From the sequence record NC_070869.1: a stretch of 64,000 nt of DNA. The stretch is one strand, 5' to 3'. A program made the position numbers and the translations under genes. Positions within the stretch are counted from its first letter, which is position 1, and every line of letters starts with the position of its first letter. The notes under the pieces are model-generated. The model made no database searches, was not told the origin of the DNA, and saw only the letters and a list, made by a program, of their open reading frames with translations. Below are positions 36,010 through 63,858 of this stretch, piece after piece. This stretch comes from Escherichia phage vB_EcoP_SP5M.

Positions 36010-36086
36010 GTCCGCTTAGCTTAGACTGGGAAAGCAACCGACTAATAATCGGAAGGTCACTGGTTCAAATCCAGTAGTGGACACCA
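36010..36086 (+). tRNA. tRNA with apparent anticodon AAU (loop CTAATAA), CCA encoded
   Basis: Acceptor GTCCGCT/AGTGGAC; D-arm GCTT-AGACTGGGA-AAGC; anticodon stem ACCGA/TCGGA; T-arm ACTGG-TTCAAAT-CCAGT. Confidence 0.55.
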
Positions 36087-36318
36087 ATTCAGCAGTAACA
36101 TAGTCCTGATTGCATAGCACTCTAAAGACAACACTGGTAAGACAGTCCAGTGGCTGCTAATGTATTGTTATTCCCCTCGACGGGAATTTCGCTAGTGAAG
36201 GTAACACTTAAAAATCCAAACCTACGTCTTACTACTATCAGGCTATCAACCCATGGTCGCTTAACCCTATAGTGATAGTAGTTTGACGGCCTGCTTCGTT
36301 GACTGCGTTAAAGTCACT

Positions 36319-36358
36319 AAGTCCCCTGGAGCCGCCACTCTGGGGGACTTTTTTATTT
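36319..36358 (+). terminator. Rho-independent terminator closing the tRNA island
   Basis: AAGTCCCC ... GGGGACTT hairpin followed by TTTTTTATTT. Confidence 0.55.
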
Positions 36359-38067: not shown

Positions 38068-41000
38068 TTAGTTTACTAAGTTCATCCAAGGGTTCAGGTT
38101 GTGAGCACGAAGCCCCTGACCAAAGCCCCATGAGTAATCCAGACTACCCTTAGCAGCAATGCTAAAGATGTTGTCCTGAATAGGTAAGCCAACGTTACCA
38201 AACATGGTAGGAGTTGGAGCCAGCATCGCCATTGCTGCATGTACTGGGTTGTTACGAATCATGGACACTGCAACTTTTGCTGAACGAATCTTAAAGTTGT
38301 AGAACCACATTAAACCAACACTTTCCATATACCCACGGAAGCGACCCGGCAGACGGTCATAGTTAACGAACTCTTCCGTTACACGTCCCAGTGCTTCTTC
38401 ACGAGTCTTACCTTTACGCTGGGTCAGTTCATCATAGATGATTGCTTTAGCGATAAAGTCAGAGTACTCAACAGTCTTCTGGATACCCTGGAACAAAGCA
38501 GTATCCTTAGTGATAAGTGCATAACGACCAGCAGTACGCACTGACTTAGGTAACTTATCAGCCAGCTTATCCATGTATTCGTGAAGTTTGCCCTCAGTAA
38601 TCAGGATGTCATCACGACCGATACCAGCATCCGCAATTGAAGAGAACTCACCAGCTTCTAACAGAGGCCAGATACTCATACGCTTATGGCTATCAGTAAT
38701 GGACTGAATCTCAGCCTTAAGTTTACGAATCTGGTTCGGGTTAGTAGCTGCACGTAATTCTGCTTCTGCATCTACCTGACGTAGACGAGATTTCAGGTAC
38801 TGATTAATCTCAGCAGTCTTCTGTGGAATGCTCTTAGCAATGTTCTTAACCGGTACGCCACGGGCAACCATCTGGTAAAGGTTAGCCAAGAAGTTAACAG
38901 CAGGTACGACTACTGACTTAACTACAATCAGAGTCTTAGCTTCTTTAACTAAGTTTTGAACCAGGTTCTCACCACCCATTGTGTACTTATATGCACGGTT
39001 ACCAAATACACCCAGCATAGCTTTCTTGAAGGTATCCAATGTTTCTGGGGACCAACGAGAATTACCAGACCAAGCATCCCCAACGGAAGCTGCACGATAA
39101 CCAAGTGCATCATTCAGCATGTCACGACGCACCCACAGTTCACCTTCACCGAATAAACTCTCTGCTTTCCGTCGAGTTTCACTGTTCATCAGCTTGAGAG
39201 CATCAGCAGTTACTGGGTCCAGTTTAGAACCAAGAAGATTCACATACTGGGACTTATTAGAGGCAGACATTTTAATGTCGTTCTCATACATGCTATGCAG
39301 GTTCTCAATCAGCATATCGTTGAAGCGTTGAGCCTTAGCTTCTTCCACCTGACGACCACGCCATACACCAATTGCACGGGCAAGATGGTTCTCACCTTCA
39401 ATGTGCTTCAGCATGTTAGGGTCAATGGATTGCTCATAGGCAACTACATTACCTTTATCGTCATATACTGGCAGCAGTGGTTCGTTGCCACGTTCACCAC
39501 GAGCCAGTGCTTTAGTGATACGGTCTACGGAAGGTTTGTCAGTAATACGACCAGCTACCATTGAACCTACCGTAAATCCTGTACCAAGATCTACACCACC
39601 AGCAGTATCACGAACGTTCTGTAGGATACCCTGTGAGAATGGAGCCTGTGCCTGTACTGGTGCAAAGTAGTAGCTACGTGCTGGACCACGGTTAGCAGAG
39701 CTACCTTGATAAGTACCAAGACGTACATAGGACTTCTCAATCAAATCACCAAACTGGCTATCTTCAGCAACAATCAGATTAACACCCTGTTTAGTCTCAC
39801 TAGGGATATGCCCTTTGTACTGGTTCAGAGTTGCACGTGGGTCAGACTTGGCTTTAGCCATTTCATCTTTACGCTGACCAACCAGATAAGAAGTAGCAAA
39901 GTCCATTCCATCAACTTCTGTCTGAGCCAGTGAAGATAACATTTCACGGTCAGACTTGTTCATTGCTTCCAGTGCATACAGGGTAATAAGTTTATCCAGT
40001 TGAGCTACATCTACAGTAGATCGAGCAGCCTGACGTTCACCCAGCATACGGGAGATTGCAGTAGCATTACGCAGTAGGTTATTACCAACTGTACCGTTAA
40101 TCATGTACTGAGCCAGTTGCTTAGATTTACGATTAATCAGGGGCCAGTTACGACCAGCTTGTTTCTGCAAATCTGCTTCCAGCTTATTCACTTCACGGTC
40201 AACAATCTTCTGGTCAGACAGCAGGTCACGGATTTCAGCCAGAGACATAGTATCCCGAAGAACAGCTAAGTCAGTTTTACCCATACCAGTGTGCATTGCT
40301 TTCCACTCATCATTAGTCAGCTTACGACTGAACTTAGATGCGATAGTGGTAGGCAGATGTTCACGGAATTGCTGTCGGTCTGCTTGTACCTGTGCACGAA
40401 CTGCTTTAATCAAATCGTATACAGAAGCATTGCTCTTAGTACGACCGGTTAAGTCATTAATTAAGTCATGAAAAGGTTGCCATACCTTACCCTGGTTCAT
40501 TGCTGCCATAACACCTTCAGCTACAATTGCACCATTCTTCTCTGTAGCAATAGCAGCTACCAGTTGTGCAGCATGAGCAGCACCTTTGACCAATGGGTTC
40601 TTAGTATTAGCTGCAACTTCACGAGCACTTTCTAAAGCACGAGTAGACAGTGCATCAATAGAATCCACCAGATACTGGTTAGCTCGGTCAATAGCATTAC
40701 CACTGGGAGTAGCAACGGAATCATAGAATGACTGTGCATTGAGGCTAGTCTGCATGATTGTCTGAGCCAGTGCATCCATACCTTCCTGTACGTTAGTAGC
40801 TTTGGTATCACCTGCTACACGGGCATTCAGGCTAGACATTGCAGCAGTACCAATGTTAGTCAGCATTGCATCAACGGTATTACCAGATTTCTTATCTGCT
40901 TTCATAACTGGAATGTTAGCCAGTACATTACGTACTTCTTCGCTAACCATTGCCAGACCAACAAAGGTAGGCAGTAAGGAAGAACGACCCTGTGCATCAA

Positions 41001-44000
41001 ACTCAATGTTGTTAGCACCCATGATTGTATCGAACTTCTGTTGAGCATAGTAACGGTCAGCAGGGTTAGTACTATCTGGGTCAGCCATGAATGCTTCAAC
41101 GGTCAGGTTCTTAGTAACGTGTGCATAGTATTCCTGTACACGAGAAAGAGCTGCCGGACTAATAGCAGCTTCGGTAGCCAGTGCAGCAACGATATTAGTG
41201 AACAGACGTTGCTCCTGCATATTCATAGTGAAGCCATGGGCCTGAACATCACGGGTTACTTTAGTTGCATTCACTACTGCATCAGAGAACTTACCTTTAC
41301 GAATTACTTGCTGTACTGGTTCAGAACCAATGTAGTTAGTAATCAGTTTATCAAAGGTCTGCCCCAACTCTTCCAGACGGGTATTGTCACCGTATGCCTT
41401 GTTATGGAACAAGGTAGTGTCCTTGGATACAGCAGCAGTAGGAGCCTGTCCACGCATAACCACAGAGGAGTTAAACAGTAAGCCAGAGAACATATCATCT
41501 GCATTAGCAGGTGCTTTCTTGCGACCAAATACCAGACGCTTGATTGCTTCATACACAGACTGAACCATAGCTTTCAGTGCTGTGGTCTTCTTCTGCTTAC
41601 CAATCAATTCACGGTTGGTTAAACCCCAAGCCATGTACTCATTCAGTGCAGCAGCTTTAGCCATTGCAGGTTCAATGAAGCCATTAGACAGGTGACCATT
41701 AATGGTAATAAGTGCATCAGCATATGCTTCACGTACTGCCGGAGATTCGTTCTTAACATCCAGAGTACGGAACTGGTTCATCAGGTCTTCAATATTCTGG
41801 ACTGCTTCATTATGAGTACCCTCGTAGTGAGCCAGTACAGATTCAAAAGTGGAAGCATGTACCAATTCATGAACCAGAGTCTCTAAGGAAGGGGTAACTA
41901 AGTAGATGGTCTTATCATCGAAGTTAGTCCAACCATACGCATTACCTGCTTCGGCAGCTTCAATATCTTCCGGTGCTGGACGGGTAATGTTCTTCTCAAT
42001 AGCATAAGCATCCAGTTGAGCAGGTGTACCGTAAACAACCTTGTAGTCTTTAGCAGCAAGAGATTTCTGTACTTCCTTCAATACTGCTTGCTGCTCAGGA
42101 GACATCTCTTTAGCCAGCTTAGTAATAGCAGTATTGGACAGCAGACGTACACCAGACTTAAGTACACGACCAACTTGTTCCATTGCTGGAATTTCTTTCA
42201 CTGGTTCTGCTTTAGCAGCACGTACTGCATCACGACGCTTGTTTAATTCAGCATCAAACAGTTCGTTCAACTTAGCTACTTGCTGGTCTACAGTCAGACC
42301 TTCCAGAGAGATTTTACCGTTATTCACATAAGGAGCACCTACAGCAGCCATCTGGTCAACAGTGGTCTGCACCTGGTTCATTACTTTGTGGCGAATATCT
42401 ACACCAAGAGCAATGTTACGCAGGTTACGTTCAATCTGTTCAGCACCTGCACGTAACAGGTCATCAGTAGCTCCCTCACGCTGGTCATATTCCAGAGCAG
42501 ATTTAGCGATAGCCTGTTTGGTTTCATCAGACAGTTTGCTGAAGTCTACATTCTTCATGAACTTAGCGTAGGAGTCATAAACATTCTTGATAGGGTTACC
42601 CTGCCAAGAAGTGTATACAGCCTCGTTAGCTTTGCGACTTGCATCAGTGATGTCACTGATACCAATGTTCATACCATCAAAGATTTTCAAGGTATTCTTT
42701 GGAGCACCTTTCATAGTAGAAAGGGTCTGCATCATCATGCCATCACCAGTACCGATGGTCATAAATGGAATACCTGCAACACCTGCCTGTGAAGGAGCAT
42801 AGATGCTCATTGGCACACGCATACGGTCATCTAAGTTGGTAGCCAGTACTTGGTTAGCAACATCAGTATTCTCACTACCAGCAATGTAGAAAGTCTGTGA
42901 GCCAGTCTCAATCATTGGAGCCAGTGGAGATAAAGATTCCTGGATTTCATTCAGTTCTTTCTGTGTTAAGAAATCACCCTTCTTCCAGGTTGAGTCTTTT
43001 TCTTTTTCTGCCAGCTTAGCCTGTACTGCTTGCTGGAACATATCCTGCAATACCAGAGACTGAATCTGGGTAGCCTTCTGCAAGTTCTCAGTAGAGTGCA
43101 TCAGACCTTCACCAACAGTATTACGGATACCAGTACGCATTGGTTCAACGAACAGGTAGAGCATGTTCTCTTGTAAGTTCTTCAGGGCATTACCGGATAC
43201 GGTAAATTTCTGAGGGTTTAACTTACCAGTCAGAGCACCATCTACTTGCTGAATAGACAACTCACCTTTACGCACAACTGGAACATTGCCAGTCAGTGCT
43301 TCCATAGAAGTAAGGAAAGTATCCAGCATAGCCTGAGCATCAGCCTCAGACGCAGCCTCCTTACCAAACATTGCCATAGCTGGGGAAATGCTAGGGTCAG
43401 CAGCCCGTGCTTGCAGAACGTCACTGAGGCGTTCATAGATGGTGTCAGTAATTGCACTAACCATCTTACCAGCAATACCACGAGCACCAGAACCATAGAT
43501 GGTAATGGTCAGTGGGTTTTTGGCGATACCACGTTTCAGGTCCAGAGTACCGTCTTCATTCAGGTTGAAGTCTTTAATGAACAAGTCCATTAACTTCTGA
43601 AGATGGTTCATCTGGCTCATAACTGGAACGTTGTTACGGTAAGTAGTACGTAACTCATTCAGGGCTTGTTGCAGACCATTGGTAGATGCTTCATACAGGT
43701 CAACACTGTCATCCTGTGAACGATGCTCGTTCATAGTCTTACCAGCTTTACCAAAGAACAAACCACCCTTAGCAGTATTCTTAATCCAGTCTGGAGTGAA
43801 CTTACCACCAGTCATTAATACCATTGCGTTGATTGGGCCGTTAGTTACACCATCAGCTTCAACGTACAGTGGAGTATTAAAGTTGGCACGGTCATCGCTG
43901 TTCAGGTAACGAGCATATTCCATCAGAGCCATGAGAGCCACGAAGGATTTGTCACCACCCAGAGAAGTCTTCAGGATATCTACTGCATCAGCAGGTAAGT

Positions 44001-47000
44001 GACCAGACTTATCGAACTCAACCATCATATCAACAGCTGGCTTCAGATTGCCTTCCAGAGCCTTGGTCAGCTTTTCAGACATAGCCTCACGGGACATGTT
44101 ATGTACCTTGATGCCCAATGCCTGAGCCAGTCCTAGCTGGAAGTCAGAGTACGCTTGGCTGTTTTCATTACTTAAGTCGATAGTAGAGAAGGTCGGCAGA
44201 ATTGCTTCACGAACCAGTTTACTGGATTGTGGGTTGTTCTTACCAAGCATCTGCATACGGCCTACACGAGTCATGTTGTAACTGTAGTGAATAGGAGTAT
44301 CCAGTCCATTCTCTTGTTCTCGTATCTGATTAATTACACCGAACAGAGAATCATATGCCATAGACACGGACAGGTTTTTACCTTCCAGAGATTTAGCAGT
44401 GTTCTCATTCAGTAAGTCAGGATTAAGAGTACCAGCACCCATCAGTTCCAGAATGTTGTCACGGCCTAATGCTTCATAGAAGTTAACCATCGGCATATGT
44501 ACACGGAACTCAGTAGCCTGTTCAGCTTTCAGAGCAGCTTTCTGCTCAGGGGTATTTTTAACAGCAGGATTACGTAACTGAGTTTGAGCCACGGAAGGAA
44601 TGTCATCACCGAAGTACATTTTCTCTTCCGGATTTACCAGCACAGCTTCCTCAATTGCTGTAGGGAAATCATTAATAGGGTCTTTATCTGCCAGCTTATT
44701 AATGGTGTACAGACCAACAGTCTTATTAGAGTCTGGGTCAATCTCAGACACATCCAGCATAGTCTCAGTAACTGCACCCATCTCAATGAGAGAAGACAGA
44801 ATCTCTGTAGCCATTGCCATTGGGATACCTTTTGTATATCCCAAAGGTGCATTAGGATTGCGATTTAAACCCCAGTAGGATTCAATCTTCTGAGCCAGTG
44901 AGCTAGTAGCTTCAACCAGAGTCTGGGCATTCTCAAACTCAGCCAGAATACTTTCTGGTAACAGAGATGCTTCTACACCAGTAATAGCAGCTACATCTTT
45001 CATATCTTTAATAGCAGCATTCTGTGTAGCAGTCAGTCGCCATTGCAGACCAGCAAGCACAGCAGTCTCTAACAACTGGTCATTGAACTTAAAGGTATCA
45101 CCATCTCGTTCAACGATATTCAGCAGTTTGCCACCTACCCAACGATTAGCCTCAGTACCTTCTGCAAAACGTTTACCAACATTTTTGTTAGCAAGGAACT
45201 TAGCCAGTCGTTCAGACAGAGTAGTCTTCAGAGTTTCCCCAAAGTCCATCAAGTCCTGATAACGTTTCATCACATCACTGGTGAGAGCGTTATTTTCTTT
45301 TTGAGTGAATGCTTCAAAGCGAGCAGCAGAAGACAGTGCTTGCTTAATATCAGTCAAAGGAGATTCAGAACCAATGGTACGGGACTTAGGTTCTTCTGGT
45401 AGGGTAAATGCTTTCAGGAACTGGTTCGGTGTCTTTTCATTGTTATAGACAGGGAACACTGTTTCCATTTCTGTTTTGGTTTCGACTACTTCCTGGGTAG
45501 CATCTACTGTTTCAGATTCAGTAGTAGAGACTTCTTCTGCTTTTGGACTAGTCTCCTTAGTAGGAGCAGTCTTATTTTCTACCACTGGTTTAGATTTAGG
45601 CTGTACAGTAGTAGTGTCCTCTTGCACTGGTGCAGGAGATTCATCAACCTGATTCACTGGTTCATTGGTCTGTTGGGATTGAGCAGCATCAAGACTGCCC
45701 TGACGGAACTCTTTAACTACCTGAGCAGCAGGCTTGTTCAGACGTGGATCCAACGAGGTAACTTTCACATGAGAAACATTAAGCTCCGGGTAAGCCGTAG
45801 CAAGTGCATTAGCAATATCAGCTACGGTTTTGGCCTCCAGTCCTACTTGCTGGGCAAACTTAACAGACTTGGTATCATAAGGATTGACACCGAGACCAGT
45901 ACGACTACGTACCCATTCACGGGAAGGCGAGAGAGCCTGATAATGAACAGACTTATTCTTATCCGCATTCCCAGAAATCAGATGCTCATTCAACGCTCCG
46001 ACCTTATTCTGCATGTGCTGGGCGAACTTCATAAAGTCGCTCAGATAAGCGGAGGCCAAATCGAAGTTACCAGAGTTATACGCAGAACGAATGCGTTTCG
46101 CATGTTGCAACGCAGAGTACTGTCCTTCGTTAGAACGAGACTCGTCGGTTTTAATCTGTTTACTAACAATGTCTTGAGGACGTAAGCCTAGTTCTTCTGC
46201 TTTAGCGTCGAACTCACGTGCACCCTGTAATAAGGCAGCAGCCGATTGCAGGGCAGCACGTTGACGATTCCCCAGTGTAATCTTACCTTCACTTGCATGT
46301 TTCAGAACCATGTTCACTGAATCTGCGTCCAGTACTTCTGGAGACACATCAGCAGCCATAGCAATGTTGTTTGCTTGGGCTTGGTTAGCTTCTTCAGTAG
46401 CTTTCAGCTTACCTGCTTCAGCCTGTTCCTGAATCATGGAATGGATAGCACGGAATGCACGGAGTACTTTAGGGGTATTCTGTACGTTAGCCATCAGACC
46501 GGAGAACTGGTCTACGATAGTAGCAGCAGGGGAACCTTGTTCCAGATTAGCCAGAGCACCTGGGTCACGGTTAATGAAGCTATCCATAGACATGATGTTG
46601 TCATACATCTGGATTGCAGCTTCCATTTGAACGTTAGGGTCTTCGGCAGTATTAACCAGGTCAGCCATCTTCTGAATAGCTTCTACACGGTTAGTGGAAC
46701 CAGAAACAGCTTCACGGATTACTGGGTTAGCTTGTTCCAATTCTACTGGGTCAAACTTCATTGCCTGAGTTAAGTCAGCAGCATACTGAGTAGCAGCAGC
46801 TTTCTCTTCTGGAGTGATATCCATTGCATCTACTGCTTCCTGTACAGTTGCTTGTGCTTGCTCTGCCTGAGCAGCAGCTTCCTGTGCAGCAGCGTTAACC
46901 GTAGCATCAGCTACAGGGGATGCTTGTTCATTACGCTTAGCAACTTCTTCACCACGTTGAACCAGGATGTTAGTAAGAGGAGATGCAGCTTTTGCTAATG

Positions 47001-48417
47001 TTTTACCAACCAGAGAAGCACCAGCCAGAGTAGTACGAAGAGCAGGACCAGCAGCAGCTCCGGCAGCTTTAACAGTTGCACCTGGAGCTTGAGCAACCCC
47101 AGCACTACCGAAGCCATAAAGTGCACCAAGACCTGCTTGCTCACCAACCCCTTTGAGAGTGTCACGGGATGCATCAACATTTTCCTTGATTGCACGGTTC
47201 TGGGCATACTGACCAAAGCCTGACTGAATACCTTCCTCTACAGTCTCACGAAGCATATTAGAACCAGCACCTGCCAGTGAACCTACCTTAAGTGGATTAA
47301 GTTCAAACTTGGATACCAGTGGACCAGTAGCAGCAGCAACTGGGGCAGTTAAGCCAGCAGCAATGATACCTGTTTCGGATGCAGTCTGACGACGTGCTTC
47401 ATCAGGAGATAATCCATCAGCAATATGTTGTTGGTAAACAGGAGATTTACTTGCCAGTTCTTGATGAGGCATCTTCATGATTTCAGAAGCAGTCTGTTGG
47501 TATGCACCACCAGCTTCCATACCACCGATTGCAATAGCAGGTGCAGCAACACGACCAGCAGACAATGCAACCTGTGCAGGACGTGAACCTAACTCAGCAG
47601 CTAAGGTAATACCCTTAACAGCTTTATCCCCTCCTACCATTACTTTACCGAGTGCAGATACACCACGGATAAGTGGACCACCAGTAAAGAGGGAACCAAC
47701 ACCTTCACTCAGTCCATCGGAGGCAGCCATACCATTATCAAGTGTATTAGCAACAGAATCGAAAGCATCACGACCAATGCGGGACAAGGAGGCAACCAAA
47801 TCGCTCTCCCCGTTTTTGATGTCTTGTTCATAAAGTTTCTGGTTCTTTTGAGCAGAAATCTGGTTCTGATTCTGAACAACTTTACGGGTAGCATTCAGTG
47901 CATCAGACTGTAAATTGTGTACACCTTCATTCAACCAATCCATCCCGGAAGCAATGGATGCCCCGGCATTATCATTGACCAGACCTGTGCCAAGAGCAGC
48001 AATGCCCCCAAGGGTATTAGCAACACCAAGACCAACACCAGAAAGAGTATCGCCAAATGCTTCTGCGTTAGTACGTTGTTTAGATAAGTCCTGACGTACA
48101 GCATCAGCAGCATTAGCTCGGCTATTAAGAATTTGTAGACCCTGCTCATTACCGTATTTATTAATGATTTCTAAGGGGGAGGCTTGAGTGAAATCTGCCT
48201 GAAGTGAACCTGGTTCGAATGCACCGATTCCAAGATTACCTACTCGTCCGGTCTGGAGATTGTAAGCATTCTCTGGGGTTAATTGGAAAGGGCTTTGCCC
48301 TTGTGCAGCTTGCTTCTGAGAGGTTGCAGTAGAGACATCGACTTGCTTAGCATTAGTGATGCTGTCTGCGAAACCTGCCAGACGGTCAAATGTTGACATA
48401 GCATGTTTCCTGTTCAA
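38068..48417 (-). CDS. Virion-encapsidated RNA polymerase (N4 gp50-like vRNAP), 3449 aa
   Basis: Giant ORF at the N4 vRNAP position; TRVGR (T/DxxGR-like) and other RNAP-like motifs in the central region. Confidence 0.85.
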   Translation of the reverse strand: MNRKHAMSTFDRLAGFADSITNAKQVDVSTATSQKQAAQGQSPFQLTPENAYNLQTGRVGNLGIGAFEPGSLQADFTQASPLEIINKYGNEQGLQILNSRANAADAVRQDLSKQRTNAEAFGDTLSGVGLGVANTLGGIAALGTGLVNDNAGASIASGMDWLNEGVHNLQSDALNATRKVVQNQNQISAQKNQKLYEQDIKNGESDLVASLSRIGRDAFDSVANTLDNGMAASDGLSEGVGSLFTGGPLIRGVSALGKVMVGGDKAVKGITLAAELGSRPAQVALSAGRVAAPAIAIGGMEAGGAYQQTASEIMKMPHQELASKSPVYQQHIADGLSPDEARRQTASETGIIAAGLTAPVAAATGPLVSKFELNPLKVGSLAGAGSNMLRETVEEGIQSGFGQYAQNRAIKENVDASRDTLKGVGEQAGLGALYGFGSAGVAQAPGATVKAAGAAAGPALRTTLAGASLVGKTLAKAASPLTNILVQRGEEVAKRNEQASPVADATVNAAAQEAAAQAEQAQATVQEAVDAMDITPEEKAAATQYAADLTQAMKFDPVELEQANPVIREAVSGSTNRVEAIQKMADLVNTAEDPNVQMEAAIQMYDNIMSMDSFINRDPGALANLEQGSPAATIVDQFSGLMANVQNTPKVLRAFRAIHSMIQEQAEAGKLKATEEANQAQANNIAMAADVSPEVLDADSVNMVLKHASEGKITLGNRQRAALQSAAALLQGAREFDAKAEELGLRPQDIVSKQIKTDESRSNEGQYSALQHAKRIRSAYNSGNFDLASAYLSDFMKFAQHMQNKVGALNEHLISGNADKNKSVHYQALSPSREWVRSRTGLGVNPYDTKSVKFAQQVGLEAKTVADIANALATAYPELNVSHVKVTSLDPRLNKPAAQVVKEFRQGSLDAAQSQQTNEPVNQVDESPAPVQEDTTTVQPKSKPVVENKTAPTKETSPKAEEVSTTESETVDATQEVVETKTEMETVFPVYNNEKTPNQFLKAFTLPEEPKSRTIGSESPLTDIKQALSSAARFEAFTQKENNALTSDVMKRYQDLMDFGETLKTTLSERLAKFLANKNVGKRFAEGTEANRWVGGKLLNIVERDGDTFKFNDQLLETAVLAGLQWRLTATQNAAIKDMKDVAAITGVEASLLPESILAEFENAQTLVEATSSLAQKIESYWGLNRNPNAPLGYTKGIPMAMATEILSSLIEMGAVTETMLDVSEIDPDSNKTVGLYTINKLADKDPINDFPTAIEEAVLVNPEEKMYFGDDIPSVAQTQLRNPAVKNTPEQKAALKAEQATEFRVHMPMVNFYEALGRDNILELMGAGTLNPDLLNENTAKSLEGKNLSVSMAYDSLFGVINQIREQENGLDTPIHYSYNMTRVGRMQMLGKNNPQSSKLVREAILPTFSTIDLSNENSQAYSDFQLGLAQALGIKVHNMSREAMSEKLTKALEGNLKPAVDMMVEFDKSGHLPADAVDILKTSLGGDKSFVALMALMEYARYLNSDDRANFNTPLYVEADGVTNGPINAMVLMTGGKFTPDWIKNTAKGGLFFGKAGKTMNEHRSQDDSVDLYEASTNGLQQALNELRTTYRNNVPVMSQMNHLQKLMDLFIKDFNLNEDGTLDLKRGIAKNPLTITIYGSGARGIAGKMVSAITDTIYERLSDVLQARAADPSISPAMAMFGKEAASEADAQAMLDTFLTSMEALTGNVPVVRKGELSIQQVDGALTGKLNPQKFTVSGNALKNLQENMLYLFVEPMRTGIRNTVGEGLMHSTENLQKATQIQSLVLQDMFQQAVQAKLAEKEKDSTWKKGDFLTQKELNEIQESLSPLAPMIETGSQTFYIAGSENTDVANQVLATNLDDRMRVPMSIYAPSQAGVAGIPFMTIGTGDGMMMQTLSTMKGAPKNTLKIFDGMNIGISDITDASRKANEAVYTSWQGNPIKNVYDSYAKFMKNVDFSKLSDETKQAIAKSALEYDQREGATDDLLRAGAEQIERNLRNIALGVDIRHKVMNQVQTTVDQMAAVGAPYVNNGKISLEGLTVDQQVAKLNELFDAELNKRRDAVRAAKAEPVKEIPAMEQVGRVLKSGVRLLSNTAITKLAKEMSPEQQAVLKEVQKSLAAKDYKVVYGTPAQLDAYAIEKNITRPAPEDIEAAEAGNAYGWTNFDDKTIYLVTPSLETLVHELVHASTFESVLAHYEGTHNEAVQNIEDLMNQFRTLDVKNESPAVREAYADALITINGHLSNGFIEPAMAKAAALNEYMAWGLTNRELIGKQKKTTALKAMVQSVYEAIKRLVFGRKKAPANADDMFSGLLFNSSVVMRGQAPTAAVSKDTTLFHNKAYGDNTRLEELGQTFDKLITNYIGSEPVQQVIRKGKFSDAVVNATKVTRDVQAHGFTMNMQEQRLFTNIVAALATEAAISPAALSRVQEYYAHVTKNLTVEAFMADPDSTNPADRYYAQQKFDTIMGANNIEFDAQGRSSLLPTFVGLAMVSEEVRNVLANIPVMKADKKSGNTVDAMLTNIGTAAMSSLNARVAGDTKATNVQEGMDALAQTIMQTSLNAQSFYDSVATPSGNAIDRANQYLVDSIDALSTRALESAREVAANTKNPLVKGAAHAAQLVAAIATEKNGAIVAEGVMAAMNQGKVWQPFHDLINDLTGRTKSNASVYDLIKAVRAQVQADRQQFREHLPTTIASKFSRKLTNDEWKAMHTGMGKTDLAVLRDTMSLAEIRDLLSDQKIVDREVNKLEADLQKQAGRNWPLINRKSKQLAQYMINGTVGNNLLRNATAISRMLGERQAARSTVDVAQLDKLITLYALEAMNKSDREMLSSLAQTEVDGMDFATSYLVGQRKDEMAKAKSDPRATLNQYKGHIPSETKQGVNLIVAEDSQFGDLIEKSYVRLGTYQGSSANRGPARSYYFAPVQAQAPFSQGILQNVRDTAGGVDLGTGFTVGSMVAGRITDKPSVDRITKALARGERGNEPLLPVYDDKGNVVAYEQSIDPNMLKHIEGENHLARAIGVWRGRQVEEAKAQRFNDMLIENLHSMYENDIKMSASNKSQYVNLLGSKLDPVTADALKLMNSETRRKAESLFGEGELWVRRDMLNDALGYRAASVGDAWSGNSRWSPETLDTFKKAMLGVFGNRAYKYTMGGENLVQNLVKEAKTLIVVKSVVVPAVNFLANLYQMVARGVPVKNIAKSIPQKTAEINQYLKSRLRQVDAEAELRAATNPNQIRKLKAEIQSITDSHKRMSIWPLLEAGEFSSIADAGIGRDDILITEGKLHEYMDKLADKLPKSVRTAGRYALITKDTALFQGIQKTVEYSDFIAKAIIYDELTQRKGKTREEALGRVTEEFVNYDRLPGRFRGYMESVGLMWFYNFKIRSAKVAVSMIRNNPVHAAMAMLAPTPTMFGNVGLPIQDNIFSIAAKGSLDYSWGFGQGLRAHNLNPWMNLVN

Positions 48418-50470: not shown

Positions 50471-50935
50471 TTAACGGGTTAGTTTATTAGCTGCAATGTA
50501 AGCATCAGCCGAAGACTGGTCACGGTTCTCTGCTGTAGCACGGCTACGAGCACGGTCTTCCAGTGCAGTGTTATAAGACTTAATCTGGTTATTCAGGTTA
50601 GTGTTAGTAACACTCTTAGTAAAGTTCAGCTGGTCTTTGGCTAACTTGTTAGCCTGGAAACCACTATAGATACCAGCTAAGGAACCAAGTGCACCCAGCC
50701 CTAGTTGGAAGGTAGGTACGTTCATGCCCAACTGATTAGCTGAACCAGACAAGAAAGAAGTAGGGGAGGATACTCCTGTACCTGCATTCATACCAATAGT
50801 TGCACCAGGGGTATAGTTCATAGCTGGGGTATTAAAGTTCTGATTGTTATTAGGCATCCAAGACATAGCTCCTGGCTGAGGGGCTTGGTTGCCTGTTAAG
50901 AATGACAAATCCATAAGGATTCTCCTGTTAAACAA
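50471..50935 (-). CDS. Virion protein (154 aa)
   Basis: ORF track; late module. Confidence 0.45.
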   Translation of the reverse strand: MFNRRILMDLSFLTGNQAPQPGAMSWMPNNNQNFNTPAMNYTPGATIGMNAGTGVSSPTSFLSGSANQLGMNVPTFQLGLGALGSLAGIYSGFQANKLAKDQLNFTKSVTNTNLNNQIKSYNTALEDRARSRATAENRDQSSADAYIAANKLTR

Positions 50936-53582
50936 GGTCAGTATTAAGAGTCATATCAGTGTAGCTGCCAATCATGTTTAGAGACATATCAGCTATATCT
51001 GAACCAGTCATAAGAGTACGTGAGAGGAAAGAATCCATCGACTCCATTGACACGAATTGCATAGGGTCAATTACACCCTGTCCAGCAGTACCAAACATTT
51101 CTTCATACTGCTTATTGATTGCCATCATATCGGTATTGTACTTCTGCATTACACTCTCTGCTTTCTGAATAGTAGCAGCCGTAGATGCATTAATATACTG
51201 GCTAATGCCATTACCCACTGAACTGGTAAGCTGCATGATGTTTTGGGCATTCATCATTTCGCTGGCTAAGGTAGATAAGGATGTACCAGTAGATAGAGCA
51301 GTACCAACATTCATAGCTACCATTGAAGCAACAGCAGCGATGATAAAACCTAGCTTATCACCAAACAGTGAAGTAGATACTTTAGTGACAATAGATATCA
51401 TAATCATTGCAGCAATGGCGTTTGCTACAGCACCTACTATTACAGCAGCTAATCCAACAAAACCGAGTGATGCACCAACTGCACCATAAGCCCCAAGTAT
51501 ACCTACACCACCAGCACCCATAGTGAATACAGATACAACGACAGCAACTACAACAACCACAATCTTAAAGGCAGAAGTTTGATACCACTTCTTCTTAACC
51601 TTCTTATATGAGTTCATTACTAAGTAGGAACAAGCAGTAGACAGCTGAGTACTACGAGTCAGTGACATTGAACGGTAGATGTTAGTGTGCAGTGGGATAA
51701 TGAATCCACTCTCTTCTGCATCACCCATTGCTTCAGCAACATCAATGTTTACTGACTTGTTTTTATACACCCTGTTGCTGTGGTGCAGACCAAGTACCCT
51801 AAGTTTACGATAGGTGTTATCACCATCTTGCCAAAGCAACTCATATTCCTGCATAGAGTAAAACGTAGGAGTAACTTCCAATCTTTTAGTTGAACCAGAG
51901 TTACTAGCTGTACGTATGTTCTTGCGTGTAAGGGTTATATCCCCTGCATACCTGGCTCGAAGTTGTCCTTGTTTAGCACCTGCCCATGCTTTACCAGAAT
52001 GTGTAGTTTCAGATACATAATTCCAACGGATGGTCATGTCATACTTATAATGCTTACTACTATGCACCCTAAACTCTCGCTTAGGTATGACAGGATATTC
52101 CGGCAAGGGGGGTGGTGTTCCAACAATATGACCTTCCTGCCTGTTCCACCATTCTACGTATGCATCGACTGCATCATTAGCTGCCTGATAACCTGCAATC
52201 ACTGATTCCAATGTAGGGTAGGTTGGGTCAGGTGGGAATGCTTCAGTAGCCATCTGAAAGAAACGATAGATATATTCCTTAGCAGTATCTTCTGGAGTAT
52301 TAAGGGATACACCAAATGTGCCATAAATGTACTGAATATCACCTATGTCCTCATTCTTCTTAAGCTCCGTCATTACTTTATTAAGCTTACCACCAGTGGC
52401 TTTATAGAGAGCCTTCTTACAGTGGGGGTAAATTGGGTCATACTCTACCCATTGTTTATCATTCCTGATTGGGATGAATGGATAGAATCGGTTATCAGTA
52501 GCTTCAGTTTCAAACAGTGAGTCAAGTACAGCGTTGCCGGAATTGTACTTATAGATAAGCAGTTTGGGTGTACTAACAGCAGCCATCTCAGTATCAGTAC
52601 GAGTAATCTGAGATGAGTATTTACGAACCAGTGTTTCCGTAGTTGTGGTGATTGTGTCAGTGCGAGTAACACCCCCACCTAAATCAACAACATTGGTAGT
52701 TACAGTAGTACTGGATTGTATCTCACCGAACTTTTTATGAGTCATTACTCTGTCAGATACAACTACAGTTACATCATCCGGCTTCTCAGTAAATCCTCTA
52801 CGGTAAACCTTAACGTAAGAGTTCCAGTTATCTATGCTTGATTCAGTAACAGTACTGTCTTCATCTGGCCTACCATCAGAGTAAACAGAATGAGTCTGTA
52901 TAGTCTTGGTAAGATTGGCTGTATTAGCTGTCGTATCACTTGAGATAGTAGTCCATAACAAAGTAGACGGTAAGTCATCCTCATCATCATAGACAGTAGT
53001 CGGACCTTCTACTGGTGGATTGGTAGTAGGTGACTTATAGAATGTGTAGTCAGCATAGAGATACAAAGCACCTGGTTCAAAGTTAGTAGGTGTGAATGTA
53101 ATAGTAGAGCCTCCATCTAAGGAGGTCATAGTAATTTCATTGGTATCTTCATCAATGTCTATGTCGAATCGTTCCATGATTCGACTTGGGGCATTTTCAT
53201 AAAGATACTGGTCACACCATTGCTCAAAGTCAGCAAAGCCAATTTCTGCTGCCTGAACATAGACTGTTTCTCCAGCAGGTGGAGTAAGTTGACCCTGTAT
53301 AACAGTAGGGTCAATCTTAGCCAGTACACCTAATGAAGAACCAGCCATACCAACTTCTGAATCATAGTGGTTTTTACTCCAGCTGGAGAACAGTCGCATA
53401 CGAATACCAGGTCCGTTCAGATAACTATCGGAGATAGTATCTGCCATACTGAATCCTGTATTAGCAACAATATTACCAATAACCACAGTCTTCATATAGT
53501 TTGGACGTTTATGTATATCCCCTGCCATGTTATAGACAGAGGATGCTACGTATACTTTGGTTTTCCCACTGAATAAGCCCAT
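50928..53582 (-). CDS. Large virion protein with long Gly/Ala/Val-rich hydrophobic segment
   Basis: 884 aa; about 100-residue hydrophobic stretch (VVVVVAVVVSVF ... AAVIVGAVANAIAAMIMISIV). Confidence 0.5.
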   Translation of the reverse strand: MGLFSGKTKVYVASSVYNMAGDIHKRPNYMKTVVIGNIVANTGFSMADTISDSYLNGPGIRMRLFSSWSKNHYDSEVGMAGSSLGVLAKIDPTVIQGQLTPPAGETVYVQAAEIGFADFEQWCDQYLYENAPSRIMERFDIDIDEDTNEITMTSLDGGSTITFTPTNFEPGALYLYADYTFYKSPTTNPPVEGPTTVYDDEDDLPSTLLWTTISSDTTANTANLTKTIQTHSVYSDGRPDEDSTVTESSIDNWNSYVKVYRRGFTEKPDDVTVVVSDRVMTHKKFGEIQSSTTVTTNVVDLGGGVTRTDTITTTTETLVRKYSSQITRTDTEMAAVSTPKLLIYKYNSGNAVLDSLFETEATDNRFYPFIPIRNDKQWVEYDPIYPHCKKALYKATGGKLNKVMTELKKNEDIGDIQYIYGTFGVSLNTPEDTAKEYIYRFFQMATEAFPPDPTYPTLESVIAGYQAANDAVDAYVEWWNRQEGHIVGTPPPLPEYPVIPKREFRVHSSKHYKYDMTIRWNYVSETTHSGKAWAGAKQGQLRARYAGDITLTRKNIRTASNSGSTKRLEVTPTFYSMQEYELLWQDGDNTYRKLRVLGLHHSNRVYKNKSVNIDVAEAMGDAEESGFIIPLHTNIYRSMSLTRSTQLSTACSYLVMNSYKKVKKKWYQTSAFKIVVVVVAVVVSVFTMGAGGVGILGAYGAVGASLGFVGLAAVIVGAVANAIAAMIMISIVTKVSTSLFGDKLGFIIAAVASMVAMNVGTALSTGTSLSTLASEMMNAQNIMQLTSSVGNGISQYINASTAATIQKAESVMQKYNTDMMAINKQYEEMFGTAGQGVIDPMQFVSMESMDSFLSRTLMTGSDIADMSLNMIGSYTDMTLNTDLV

Positions 53583-54496: not shown

Positions 54497-55138
54497 TTAA
54501 TCGTTCAGGCTACCAGCAGCAATCTGTGCTTGAGCCAGTTGAGCCAATTCTGCTTCAGTCAGCGGAGGCAATACTTCAATGGAGAACTCACGTGCTTCAG
54601 TTGCACGGATATCCGGTAAGCCATTCTTACCTTTACGGGTCGTAATGTTGATGAACTTACGTTCTTTTAGGAACTCATAAATACAGTACGGAATATGATA
54701 ACCATTGTCGGTGACTTCGCCGAACGGAACAAACTTACGTACAGTACCCATATATTCGTTAGCTACGGTGATAATCTCACCCGGCAGGTCTTTCTTCTTA
54801 GGGTCAAGGTTCTGGATACGTACACGAATCAGTCGAGTCTGTTCTGCACGAATCTTCTGACCCAGTGTCATTTTCTTAACACCTGCTTCTTGTTTTTCAC
54901 CCAAAGGATTAACAGCAGCTTCTTTTACTTCTGGTTCATCTTTTACTTGTGCAGCTTCAATCTTCTCACGAAGCTTCTCAACGGAGATGTTGTTAGAGAA
55001 CTTAATATTCATCAACGTTGCACGTTGCTTAAGAACATCAAGTTCGCTAGGCATTGCAATATCGTTAACGGTATCTTCGTTGCCCTGTACGTCCAGTTCT
55101 ACGTCAGTGGTCGGTTTATCGTTAATGCTCATGTTCAT
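54497..55138 (-). CDS. Virion/assembly protein (213 aa)
   Basis: ORF track; directly downstream of the capsid gene. Confidence 0.4.
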   Translation of the reverse strand: MNMSINDKPTTDVELDVQGNEDTVNDIAMPSELDVLKQRATLMNIKFSNNISVEKLREKIEAAQVKDEPEVKEAAVNPLGEKQEAGVKKMTLGQKIRAEQTRLIRVRIQNLDPKKKDLPGEIITVANEYMGTVRKFVPFGEVTDNGYHIPYCIYEFLKERKFINITTRKGKNGLPDIRATEAREFSIEVLPPLTEAELAQLAQAQIAAGSLND

Positions 55139-55205
55139 ATTTCCTGTGGTTCAACTAGTTTTGTTAAGAGGGGGACTTATGTCCCCCTTACTTTATTTAG
55201 GACTA

Positions 55206-56408
55206 TTACAGAGGAGCAACAGTCTTAATCAGAGCCAGACGTTCTGGACGTTTAACCAGAATACCGTAGTACCACTTGATGGAACTGAAACCAGTCTCGC
55301 CATACGGGTCATTACGGTCAGCAGTTTCTCGACCAGGCATCTTAGTCATGATGGAGAACTTAACAGACTTACCATCAGTCTGGAAGCCAATGGTAGAGAA
55401 GGAGTCATCACCAACTACCAGCATCGGGAATACGTCGTAGTGTTCTTGACCACTAACCATAGAAGAACGGTAACCCGGGTTAGAAGAGACTTGAGCACCA
55501 GCACCTGCCCAATGCAGCATCTCCGGAACCTGAATAATACGGAACTTGTCGATACAACCGACTTCACCGTTCATCAGAGTACCAGCATCAGCATAGTGCT
55601 GAACCTCGATGAATGCTTTGTTACCAAACAGGTCTTTCATCGCTTTCAGTTCTGGAACCAGTTCAGAACCAACGTACATTACGCGAGTACCACCAAGTAC
55701 TTTGGTATCAGTCAGCTTAGAACCAGTGATGATAGTAGTCTGGGTCGGAGTACGGTTCTCAGTAAGAATCTGGTCAAGACGCATCAGGTTCTTATAAGAA
55801 ACTACAGACGGGGTAGAACCTTCACCAGTGATGGTAGCATCAGAGGTAGCAGCACCTGCATACAGTACAGTACCTGCAGCAGCCAACAGGTCTTTCTGGA
55901 GAACAGCTTCAGTCAACTGTACAGCACCGTTCATCAGTTCACGAGACAGGTGTTCTTTCAGTTGGTCATCAGAATCAAAGTCCAGGGACTCTTGAGTAAA
56001 TTCGTAGAAGAAACCGAACTTATGGATGGAACCTTCGCGAGACAGACGGGTAAAGCCTACACGGTTAACACGACCACCGTTCTCTGTCAGCAGAGGCAGT
56101 TTAGAGGTAATGTTACCGACGTCTTTAGAAGAACCATACAGGTTACCATTAACGATGGTAGCACCGTTGGCATCAATACCCTGGTCGTTGATGTTCTTAT
56201 CATCAAGCAGTGGAACGTACTCGTACACCTTAACAGTCTTACCGTAGTTCTTCGGCATGTTGATGGTGTTAGCCAGTGGCATGAAGTACTGATCTTTACG
56301 AGACTGAATAATAGCTTTCTTCAGCCAGTAAAAGGTATTCATCTGGTCGGAACCAGCACCATCAATGCTAGATTTCTGACCGTCAACTGGAGCGTTATAG
56401 TTTAACAT
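55206..56408 (-). CDS. Major capsid protein
   Basis: 400 aa, size and position match N4-like major capsid gene; antisense 472-aa ORF judged spurious. Confidence 0.65.
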
Positions 56409-62322: not shown

Positions 62323-63858
62323 CTACATTGATGGCAGTAGAGAGACATTAACATCTCTCACAAGCCCATCAACACTAGTTAACACAACTGAGATGTCACC
62401 AGTTGAACTATTAATAGATAAGCTAACAGTAACCCCTGTTCCAGAAAGACCAATCCTTCCAGAGCTTGCGACAATTCCGCTGGTGATGATATCAAGATAG
62501 AAATTGGTTTCGTGCCTTATCCCTATAGGTATTTTTATATAATCACCTTGTGCAGTATTGCCAATTCTGCACTCAATCAATATGGCTCTGGTGACGTATG
62601 TATCATATAAATCTTGCGCAATATTGGGCTTAGTGAATGATAACGTTGCTCCCACAGTGGCTGGTAATCTACCTGATGACTGTGCACCAATAATCCGTCT
62701 TCCTTTGATAACCTGTGACATTCCAACATTTACATCATCATCCATACCGAGATTTCCGGTTATAGCTTTATTTAATGTAGGAGCCTTCTGGTTAAGTGCC
62801 GAAGTAACAAAACCGGTCATATCACTTCCAGATATCAGGAGTGTCCCATTACCAGAGCCAAGAACCGATACGTTAAACGATGGAGAATTTGTCCCACCCT
62901 GACCCCACTCTTTAGCTCCGTTTCGGGTTCTCACCCCAGAGATTACTATTTTACCGTTATCAATAATAACAAAGTTTGCTGAGTAGTTATCATTCATTGG
63001 TTGATTAGTACCACTGCGAGCGACGACAACTCCGGTTACAATCCATGACGAATCCTTGCCAGCAACTACCCCTCCTCGTCCAGCCCTGTCGCACAGTTCA
63101 CCTGAAATCTGGTTTTCTATTGATTCATACGCATACCAGTTATCACCAGCGTTCCATTCGTTACGGCATCCCCCGAAAAAGTTACTATTTGCCCCACCGA
63201 CAAGAGCTACGCCTCGGTCATTGGCATTGATTGTGCAACCAATCATCATAGAGTCTATTAAATTTTTAACTCCGTCCCCATTTCCAGATAGTGAACAAAA
63301 GTGTGCTTTCACTGTTGCGATGTATCTTGCTGATCCTTCCTTATTCCAACCAATACCAATAGCAAAACGGTAAATCCCGCACCCTTCAAGTCGAGTACCG
63401 TTGAACTCGGTAGATTTATCTGCGGAATAAAAAAGATACGTTGTTTTATCTCGACCATCAAAAACAATATCCCGGAACACATGACGACCAGTTGAATAAA
63501 ACGGAAAGCTTGCTCCAGCTGCTACACGGATAACGACCCCGCAATTAAGGAAGCTACTGTCATCTGATACAGTGTATGGTCGACGACATCCCCACCCTAT
63601 AAGTGAGAATCCCAATGGAAGCGTAGCGGGATCGCTACCAAGTTCAATAATCCCCAGGTTCCTCGGTATATCAAGGACCATAACTCCTGCAGCTATAGCT
63701 GCTTTTAACGCATAGTCCGCTGAGACTACTGCTCCAGAAGTTGTAAGTAATGCTTGTTGATCCGATTCGGTAAGGTATTCAAAAAGTGACGCACGAATGA
63801 TTCTGTCCAGAGGGGAGGCGTTCCGGGACACCATTGACGCCCCTGTTTCAGAAGACAT
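62323..63858 (-). CDS. Tail fiber / tailspike-like protein, probable beta-helix
   Basis: 511 aa, Gly/Asn/Ser/Thr-rich with repeated G-x-G-x-V/I segments; N-terminus may lie beyond ORF start. Confidence 0.45.

Follow-up and report, generated by a model that had tools for sequence, protein, structure and literature searches.

A predicted tRNA-Ile with the anticodon AAU is conserved across Gamaleyavirus, a genus of N4-like coliphages. The gene studied here lies in a 64-kb stretch of the genome of Escherichia phage vB_EcoP_SP5M (the whole stretch is referred to as the window), and we favor, with confidence that is middling at best, its interpretation as a functional accessory elongator tRNA that would retain an unmodified A34, be charged by IleRS, and be specific for AUU. 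The annotation tRNA-Ile(aat) is already present in many GenBank records, and one paper mentions the gene in passing; we found no publication that examines where the gene comes from, how far it is conserved, or what its unusual anticodon means.

The gene, its fold, and its locus

The 1.4 kb around the tRNA-Ile gene matches 91 phage records with 90–97% identity, nearly all of them from Gamaleyavirus (Schitoviridae, N4-like) phages of Escherichia, Shigella, or Klebsiella; judged by sequence, the window is that of a Gamaleyavirus, that is, an N4-like coliphage. The tRNA locus is flanked by homologues of gp47 and gp48 of N4 and lies upstream of the virion RNA polymerase gene, which runs leftward. 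With default settings, ARAGORN reports tRNA-Ile(aat) and one unassignable tRNA gene in the 64-kb window and no others. The features of the locus are as follows:

35196..35277, − strand: tRNA-like element, found by ARAGORN at 80% of the default threshold only
35449..35521, + strand: tRNA-like element, found by ARAGORN at 80% of the default threshold only
35556..35651, + strand: tRNA-like element, found by ARAGORN at 80% of the default threshold only
35928..36000, + strand: tRNA-like gene, 9 nt upstream of tRNA-Ile; ARAGORN 'tRNA-???(ac)', Rfam tRNA 42.5 bits
36010..36086, + strand: tRNA-Ile(AAU) gene, 77 nt including the encoded 3' CCA; ARAGORN and Rfam
36042..36048, + strand: anticodon loop CTAATAA (C32 U33 A34 A35 U36 A37 A38)
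36091..36158, + strand: structured element that immediately follows the tRNA; two inner hairpins enclosed by the stem AGCAGU/GCUGCU
36319..36358, + strand: intrinsic terminator from a terminator scan; 13-bp stem, then a T run
38068..48417, leftward: virion RNA polymerase gene, 3443 codons

The original prediction described a canonical cloverleaf with the anticodon AAU, and both points hold; the gene is a bona fide tRNA. ARAGORN returns tRNA-Ile(aat) at exactly 36010..36086 on the + strand; the Rfam RF00005 match is full-length (model positions 1–71) and exceeds the gathering score of 29 with 62.4 bits (4 kb searched; E = 2.5e-12). The anticodon AAT is located at 36044..36046: Rfam places CUAAUAA in the anticodon-loop columns, and ARAGORN reads aat. 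The acceptor stem (GTCCGCT/AGTGGAC) has seven pairs, one of them G-T; the D stem (GCTT/AAGC) has 4 bp; the anticodon stem (ACCGA/TCGGA) has four Watson–Crick pairs and an A.A at 27–43, which is the sole departure from the canonical cloverleaf; and the T arm is ACTGG-TTCAAAT-CCAGT. All of the canonical features are present (G18G19, U33, the 7-nt loop, the 5-bp T stem, the GTTCAAATC T loop, and the discriminator), and the discriminator A is followed by CCA at 36084..36086. Single-sequence minimum-free-energy (MFE) folding of tRNA-Ile did not recover the cloverleaf, a failure that is common for unmodified AU-rich tRNAs; we gave this result no weight against the covariance-model and covariation evidence.

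The original prediction also noted an encoded CCA. It is present in the window, but it is specific to the window, since the relatives have ACCC, ACTT, ACAT, or ATCC after the acceptor stem. By this comparison the encoded CCA is a chance feature of the window and no property of the gene; because the relatives do not encode it, CCA would normally be added post-transcriptionally.

The upstream tRNA-like gene has an MFE fold that is a clean cloverleaf (z = −2.95). Its anticodon arm is aberrant, either a 5-bp stem with the 6-nt loop AAACCA or a 4-bp stem with an 8-nt loop, which precludes the assignment of an anticodon; the GenBank records label it tRNA-OTHER, Undet, or Thr. This gene accompanies the Ile gene in a subset of the Gamaleyaviruses, where one acceptor-stem pair has changed in a compensatory manner from G-C to A-T and the loop is polymorphic (C/T); its CCA is encoded in some relatives and not in the window. 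It is probably co-transcribed with tRNA-Ile. The terminator, which is annotated at the same site in PhAPEC5, PhAPEC7, and G7C, probably ends the transcript that contains the tRNAs; the sites found by a sigma-70 promoter scan near the tRNA gene are no more numerous than those in shuffled sequence. The structured element that follows the tRNA (~70 nt) is conserved as far as phage N4 (33441–33576, 76% identity), where its consensus fold shows compensatory changes, and it is retained even in relatives without the tRNAs. No Rfam family matches this element, which may represent a small RNA of the Enquatrovirinae that has yet to be described. When compared with PHROGs, the flanking ORFs encode a RuvC-like resolvase and proteins of unknown function, none tied to tRNA metabolism. 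The elements found at the relaxed threshold may be decayed remnants of an ancestral tRNA island; one of them overlaps a 72-aa ORF (35430..35648) that has no PHROG match.

The tRNA-Ile gene is present in about 37 of the 91 records that have the locus. Both tRNA genes are cleanly deleted in EC1-UPM and PGN829.1; an unrelated insert of 130 nt takes their place in G7C; and Bas96 has a chimeric tRNA in which the acceptor, D, and T arms are kept, with a 21-nt 'anticodon loop' and no normal anticodon arm. The slot that holds these genes (35926..36082, flanked by ggcatgactcacctatt and cagcagtaacatag; homologous in loci L005, L153, L154, and L155) is a cassette hot spot, occupied among the relatives by two tRNAs, one tRNA, a chimeric tRNA, an unrelated insert, or nothing. 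The tRNA-Ile(AAU) gene is, then, accessory and dispensable in close relatives; because it is missing there, any benefit that it confers is conditional.

Conservation, rarity, and ancestry

We collected homologues from GenBank phages and, using patterns with NNN at the anticodon, from IMG/VR and metagenomes. The anticodon is AAT in all of the 28 related loci (21 GenBank and IMG/VR loci and 7 metagenome contigs, with the window itself extra), 11 of which (4 IMG/VR and 7 metagenome) were retrieved with the anticodon left free; the canonical U33...A37A38 loop is likewise present in 28 of 28. The 13 distinct homologous sequences align without gaps and have a mean column identity of 96%. Standard pairs occupy 260 of the 260 pair cells (20 stem pairs × 13 sequences), compared with 18–49% in controls with slid partners; compensatory double changes occur at 2–71, 29–41, and 30–40, with G-U intermediates; and the covariation score was reached by none of 500 shuffles. 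The tRNA is 94–98.8% identical to those of PhAPEC7, UE-S5a, AN24P2, and 24-32N, whereas the 334 nt downstream are only 77–79% identical in the same phages. On this evidence the cloverleaf fold is under purifying selection; the paired stems, together with change that is slower than that of the flank, indicate that the Ile gene has remained a folded tRNA ever since AAU appeared. The invariance of the 7-nt loop is not significant by itself, given the mean column identity of ~96%.

The stems of two tRNA-like remnants in the neighborhood, 'Cys-aca' and 'Ala-cgc' (ECBP1 and Bp4), contain mismatches, and Rfam detects neither. We considered whether a second A34 tRNA, the 'tRNA-Cys(ACA)' of Bp4, ECBP1, and the UE phages, makes A34 a systematic feature of these phages; this candidate was rejected, as it has a poor cloverleaf with mismatched stems, no Rfam hit, and no homologue in the window.

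According to the original prediction, A34 in bacteria is limited almost entirely to tRNA-Arg(ACG), in agreement with two published accounts (PMC8007984; bioRxiv 10.64898/2026.05.15.725136). The known bacterial exceptions are Leu-AAG and Thr-AGU in Leuconostocaceae, and A34 tRNAs have been described as 'prohibited' even in phages (PMC8007984). Our scan of 185,579 bacterial and archaeal species genomes (one genome per species) with the AAT pattern gave 13 matches, of which 2 are complete tRNA-Ile(AAU) genes and 11 are loci where ARAGORN found no gene; the scan gauges rarity only. By ARAGORN these loci (L156–L168, e.g., in Legionella steelei and L. moravica) are mostly incomplete tRNA genes, and the incomplete matches may be 3' tRNA fragments at the integration sites of mobile elements. 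The anticodon-arm/T-arm pattern was also sought in IMG/VR, where CAT gives at least 120 loci and AAT gives 13: 5 Gamaleyavirus, 4 low-GC (21–24% GC; 3 of the 4 on contigs labeled giant-virus MAGs), 3 in a second phage lineage, and 1 (L030) without an ARAGORN tRNA-Ile. That second, unrelated phage lineage (L024, L027, and L028; 53% GC) carries a different complete tRNA-Ile(AAU) that is 70% identical to that in the window; this lineage looks temperate, with tail-fiber, Erf, exonuclease, and O-like replication genes. The L027 tRNA has the tail-fiber module on one side and the recombination module on the other, a position in which it could belong to an attachment site and not be a working tRNA.

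The closest relatives of the window tRNA have a different anticodon. Its identity is 79% to the CAU tRNA of EcP1 (another Schitoviridae phage), 77–78% to ileZ-type prophage tRNAs, 75.6% to K-12 ileX (tRNA-Ile2), 68.4% to K-12 metT, and 62.5% to K-12 ileV (tRNA-Ile1, GAU); that is, its body is nearer to ileX/ileZ than to tRNA-Ile1 or tRNA-Met, and it shares the anticodon-arm core CGACTNATAATCG with ileX. As detected by BLAST, all of the relatives outside Gamaleyavirus are CAT tRNAs: ileZ of Stx phages and its E. coli prophage copies (RefSeq tRNA-Ile) and the tRNAs of EcP1 and of Yersinia, Aeromonas, and Vibrio phages. The C34 of a TilS substrate is absent from the window and from each of the 28 related loci. 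Because the closest relatives are CAU tRNAs of the lysidine type (tRNA-Ile2, ileX/ileZ), AAU most likely arose by the change of C34 to A; the simplest history suggested by these comparisons is an ancestral phage tRNA-Ile2 gene, of a type that is common in phages and reads AUA once lysidine is formed, with one C34-to-A transversion. The CAU ancestry, the conservation across the genus, and the dispensability in close relatives were absent from the original prediction. The setting is also known from relatives: N4 encodes Asn, Ser, Thr, and Pro tRNAs in the syntenic gp47–gp48 gap, and the CAU tRNA of EcP1 is clustered with Asn and Pro tRNAs. We rejected a eukaryote-type origin: the AAU tRNA-Ile genes of giant viruses have the same anticodon loop and part of the stem, yet their overall identity to the window tRNA is 64%.

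Charging, decoding, and alternative roles

The identity set of E. coli IleRS (PMC9976931) is represented in the gene by A73, A35, U36, A37 (the t6A site), A38, C4-G69, U12-A23, and C29-G41. Among the homologues, A73, A35, U36, A37, A38, C4-G69, and U12-A23 are invariant, and three of the 13 distinct sequences have U-A or U-G at 29–41. MetRS needs C34, so isoleucine is the only plausible identity of the window tRNA. At position 34 the gene encodes A34 and not the G34 or lysidine-34 of the identity set. Position 34 is a major identity element; the zinc-binding domain of bacterial IleRS recognizes G34, and yeast IleRS charges an A34 transcript 16-fold worse than the I34 form (PMC11685878). Charging of the A34 tRNA may therefore be inefficient; A34 is likely a poorer determinant for IleRS than G34 or I34.

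We infer that the gene is expressed, that its product is charged by IleRS with A34 unmodified, and that only AUU is decoded. The tRNA-Ile would be transcribed rightward with the neighboring tRNA-like gene, up to the terminator at 36319, and would be processed by host RNase P and 3' trimming, with CCA added by the host enzyme where it is unencoded; t6A37 would probably be added, and E. coli IleRS would charge the tRNA with isoleucine. The unmodified A34 would form a Watson–Crick pair with AUU, and AUC, AUA, and AUG would be read poorly or not at all. The tRNA would then supplement the single tRNA-Ile(GAU) of the host, which reads AUU by G:U wobble only; AUU is the dominant Ile codon of the phage, with 59% of the Ile codons and a frequency of 33.6 per 1000, and in the major capsid gene it makes up 16 of 18. 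E. coli already has abundant tRNA-Ile(GAU) for AUU, so the gain may be modest. When an AAU tRNA was used for codon reassignment in E. coli, the values were 4.5% for AUU, 0.43% for AUC, 0.27% for AUG, and below detection for AUA, that is, AUU was read about 10-fold better than AUC (PMC11066159); an engineered Ile-tRNA(AAU) is tolerated and mildly beneficial in E. coli (bioRxiv 10.64898/2026.05.15.725136).

Enrichment of AUU and AUA in the late genes had been proposed as a check on the role of the tRNA. ATT/(ATT+ATC) is 0.65–0.77, compared with 0.71–0.82 in N4; AUA in the late genes is 9.9 per 1000, compared with 4.4 per 1000 in N4. We therefore discarded codon co-adaptation to tRNA-Ile(AAU): N4, without an Ile tRNA, has the same or a stronger bias for ATT over ATC, a trait of the subfamily, so codon usage gives no specific support for the role of the tRNA. 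The AUA-rich genes of the late region are:

50928..53582, − strand: 14 AUA
54987..56405, + strand: 9 AUA
62323..63858, − strand: 13 AUA

AUA accounts for 1 of the 157 Ile codons in the virion RNA polymerase gene and none of the 18 in the major capsid gene, which suggests that the AUA-rich genes differ in history or in expression level.

The alternative that best survives, although we consider it unlikely, is counter-defense, which the original prediction had raised as the replacement of a host tRNA targeted by an anticodon nuclease and in which the altered wobble base, perhaps with the adjacent tRNA-like RNA, would provide a substitute or a decoy against a nuclease or toxin directed at tRNA-Ile while Ile decoding is kept. 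The presence of the gene in only some close relatives, in a hypervariable cassette slot, is the usual pattern of anti-defense cargo, and both of the adjacent tRNA genes deviate specifically in the anticodon loop with the remaining fold conserved; position 34 is A in the window tRNA, G in ileV, and C (lysidine) in ileX, and the remainder of the tRNA is kept. Phage tRNAs are known to escape anticodon nucleases by loop mutations (PMC10264068; PMC11464382; PMC11555353), and a bacterial Schlafen tRNase left cleavage signatures on tRNA-Ile(CAU), among others (PMC13056530). However, a tRNA that reads only AUU could not replace the AUC and AUA decoding lost with the host tRNA-Ile, our analysis identified no E. 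coli defense specific for tRNA-Ile, and no experiment ties the Gamaleyavirus carriers to tRNA-targeting systems. To our knowledge, there is no E. coli defense specific for tRNA-Ile(GAU). We assign the same low probability to a deliberate use of the 'forbidden' A-first class, in which the A34 tRNA-Ile and the tRNA-like RNA with the 6-nt loop would form a counter-defense cassette that is invisible to, or a decoy for, a host nuclease or toxin directed at tRNA-Ile while Ile decoding continues. Conversion of A34 to I34 by non-canonical deamination would be an equally novel alternative.

Somewhat more doubtful is the proposal that the tRNA does not decode, being either a relic inactivated by C34A or a tRNA-shaped element that serves as an RNase P/Z processing signal or as a stabilizer of the conserved RNA downstream. 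The island is full of decaying or aberrant tRNA-like elements, Bas96 keeps three arms without a usable anticodon loop, and several relatives have lost the gene without replacement; to these can be added that A34 is a poor determinant for IleRS (PMC11685878) and that the loop invariance is not significant alone. These points are opposed by the retention of every IleRS identity element except position 34, by the uniform AAT and canonical loop of the 28 related loci, and by a rate of change much slower than that of the flanks; also, two of the compensatory double substitutions are in the anticodon stem, where a mere processing signal would not need them.

The least probable of the three is an inosine tRNA, that is, conversion of A34 to I34 by host TadA acting beyond its usual motif, or by an unknown enzyme, and reading of AUU, AUC, and AUA without TilS. 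It would fit an ancestor that was an AUA decoder and a late-gene AUA frequency about twice that of N4; the window loop has C32, U33, A37, and A38 in common with tRNA-Arg2, I34 formation has been inferred in E. coli for a Phe-tRNA engineered to carry AAA (bioRxiv 10.64898/2026.05.15.725136), and I34 would restore a G-like determinant for IleRS (PMC11685878). Yet TadA-dependent editing in E. coli is confined to U33-A34-C35-G36 (UACG) (PMC13170351), and the window loop is U-A-A-U. Tested in E. coli within a CU-NNN-AA loop that is otherwise the same, an AAU anticodon carried no inosine; neither inosine nor AUA reading was seen with anticodons in which both 35 and 36 depart from those of ACG, AAU among them (PMC11066159). 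A phage-encoded A34 deaminase was sought and rejected for the 64-kb window (about 8 kb of the genome lies outside it): the CDA-type motif (H/C)xE...PCxxC is absent from the chosen ORFs and from 615 six-frame segments of the window, and phmmer with an approximate E. coli TadA query gave no hit in the window with E < 1. The most expressed genes avoid AUA, as the virion RNA polymerase and capsid genes illustrate. The original prediction of AUU, AUC, and AUA decoding after deamination thus finds no support; the UACG limit, the inosine-free AAU anticodon in E. coli, and the window without a deaminase together favor an unmodified A34. If I34 were nevertheless true, AUU, AUC, and AUA would be served by one tRNA with no need for TilS, which would be unprecedented in bacterial systems.

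Relation to known tRNAs and significance

The nearest sequence family is tRNA-Ile2 (CAU; E. coli ileX/ileY, ileZ of 933W, and EcP1; 75.6–79%), with which the window tRNA shares the core CGACU-N-AUAAUCG, C4-G69, A73, the T arm, and the predicted isoleucine identity, as well as the setting in a phage tRNA cluster (with the CAU tRNA in EcP1, and in the gp47–gp48 gap in N4). Unlike tRNA-Ile2, it has A34 and not the C34 that TilS converts to lysidine, and it is without the C5-G68 pair, a TilS determinant. With A34 instead of C34 there would be no lysidine and no confusion with tRNA-Met, and the tRNA should read AUU rather than AUA.

The genomic anticodon is that of eukaryotic cytoplasmic tRNA-Ile(AAU), which becomes IAU by ADAT2/3, and the giant-virus copies have the same loop, CTAATAA; however, there is no homology beyond general tRNA features. 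The host TadA is homodimeric and UACG-specific, not ADAT2/3, so inosine is not expected. As rare prokaryotic ANN exceptions, the Leu-AAG and Thr-AGU tRNAs of Leuconostocaceae and Oenococcus are also comparable (PMC8007984). These natural bacterial A34 tRNAs are cellular and serve four-codon boxes, whereas the window tRNA is viral and serves the split Ile/Met box, in which a promiscuous reader would introduce mis-sense errors. Some of the natural bacterial A34 tRNAs stay unmodified, e.g., Thr-AGU in Mycoplasma.

Engineered A34 tRNAs share the host, the AAU anticodon, and the CU-AAU-AA loop context with the window tRNA, and they provide the only direct data: no modification was found, AUU is read far above AUC, and AUA reading is undetected (PMC11066159; bioRxiv 10.64898/2026.05.15.725136). 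They were built on an M. jannaschii tRNA-Tyr body or from mutated host genes, whereas the tRNA described here is naturally selected. With the phage tRNAs that evade immunity (PMC10264068), e.g., T5 tRNA-Lys against PARIS (PMC11464382) and tRNA-Tyr against a retron (PMC11555353), the window tRNA shares an anticodon loop that differs from that of the host isoacceptor and a place as accessory cargo in a variable locus; it differs in that its change alters the anticodon itself and with it the codon read.

tRNAs with an unmodified wobble A are nearly missing from bacteria, archaea, and phages, and the field is still asking why; a 2026 preprint engineered all of the ANN tRNAs in E. coli to address this (bioRxiv 10.64898/2026.05.15.725136). 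If the gene provides plain AUU supplementation, it is an annotation curiosity with no new biology. It is probably an unusual accessory gene that works in an ordinary way. It is also a natural ANN tRNA, maintained by selection in easily grown E. coli phages whose gene-less relatives can be used as controls; it makes testable the modification state of A34, its acceptance by bacterial IleRS, and the cost or gain in fidelity in the split Ile/Met box, and it illustrates a one-step evolutionary route by which an AUA decoder would be retargeted to AUU. Most likely, the mechanism is the ordinary one of an AUU-specific accessory tRNA, and the value of the gene is that of a natural test case for the problem of the 'missing ANN tRNA'.
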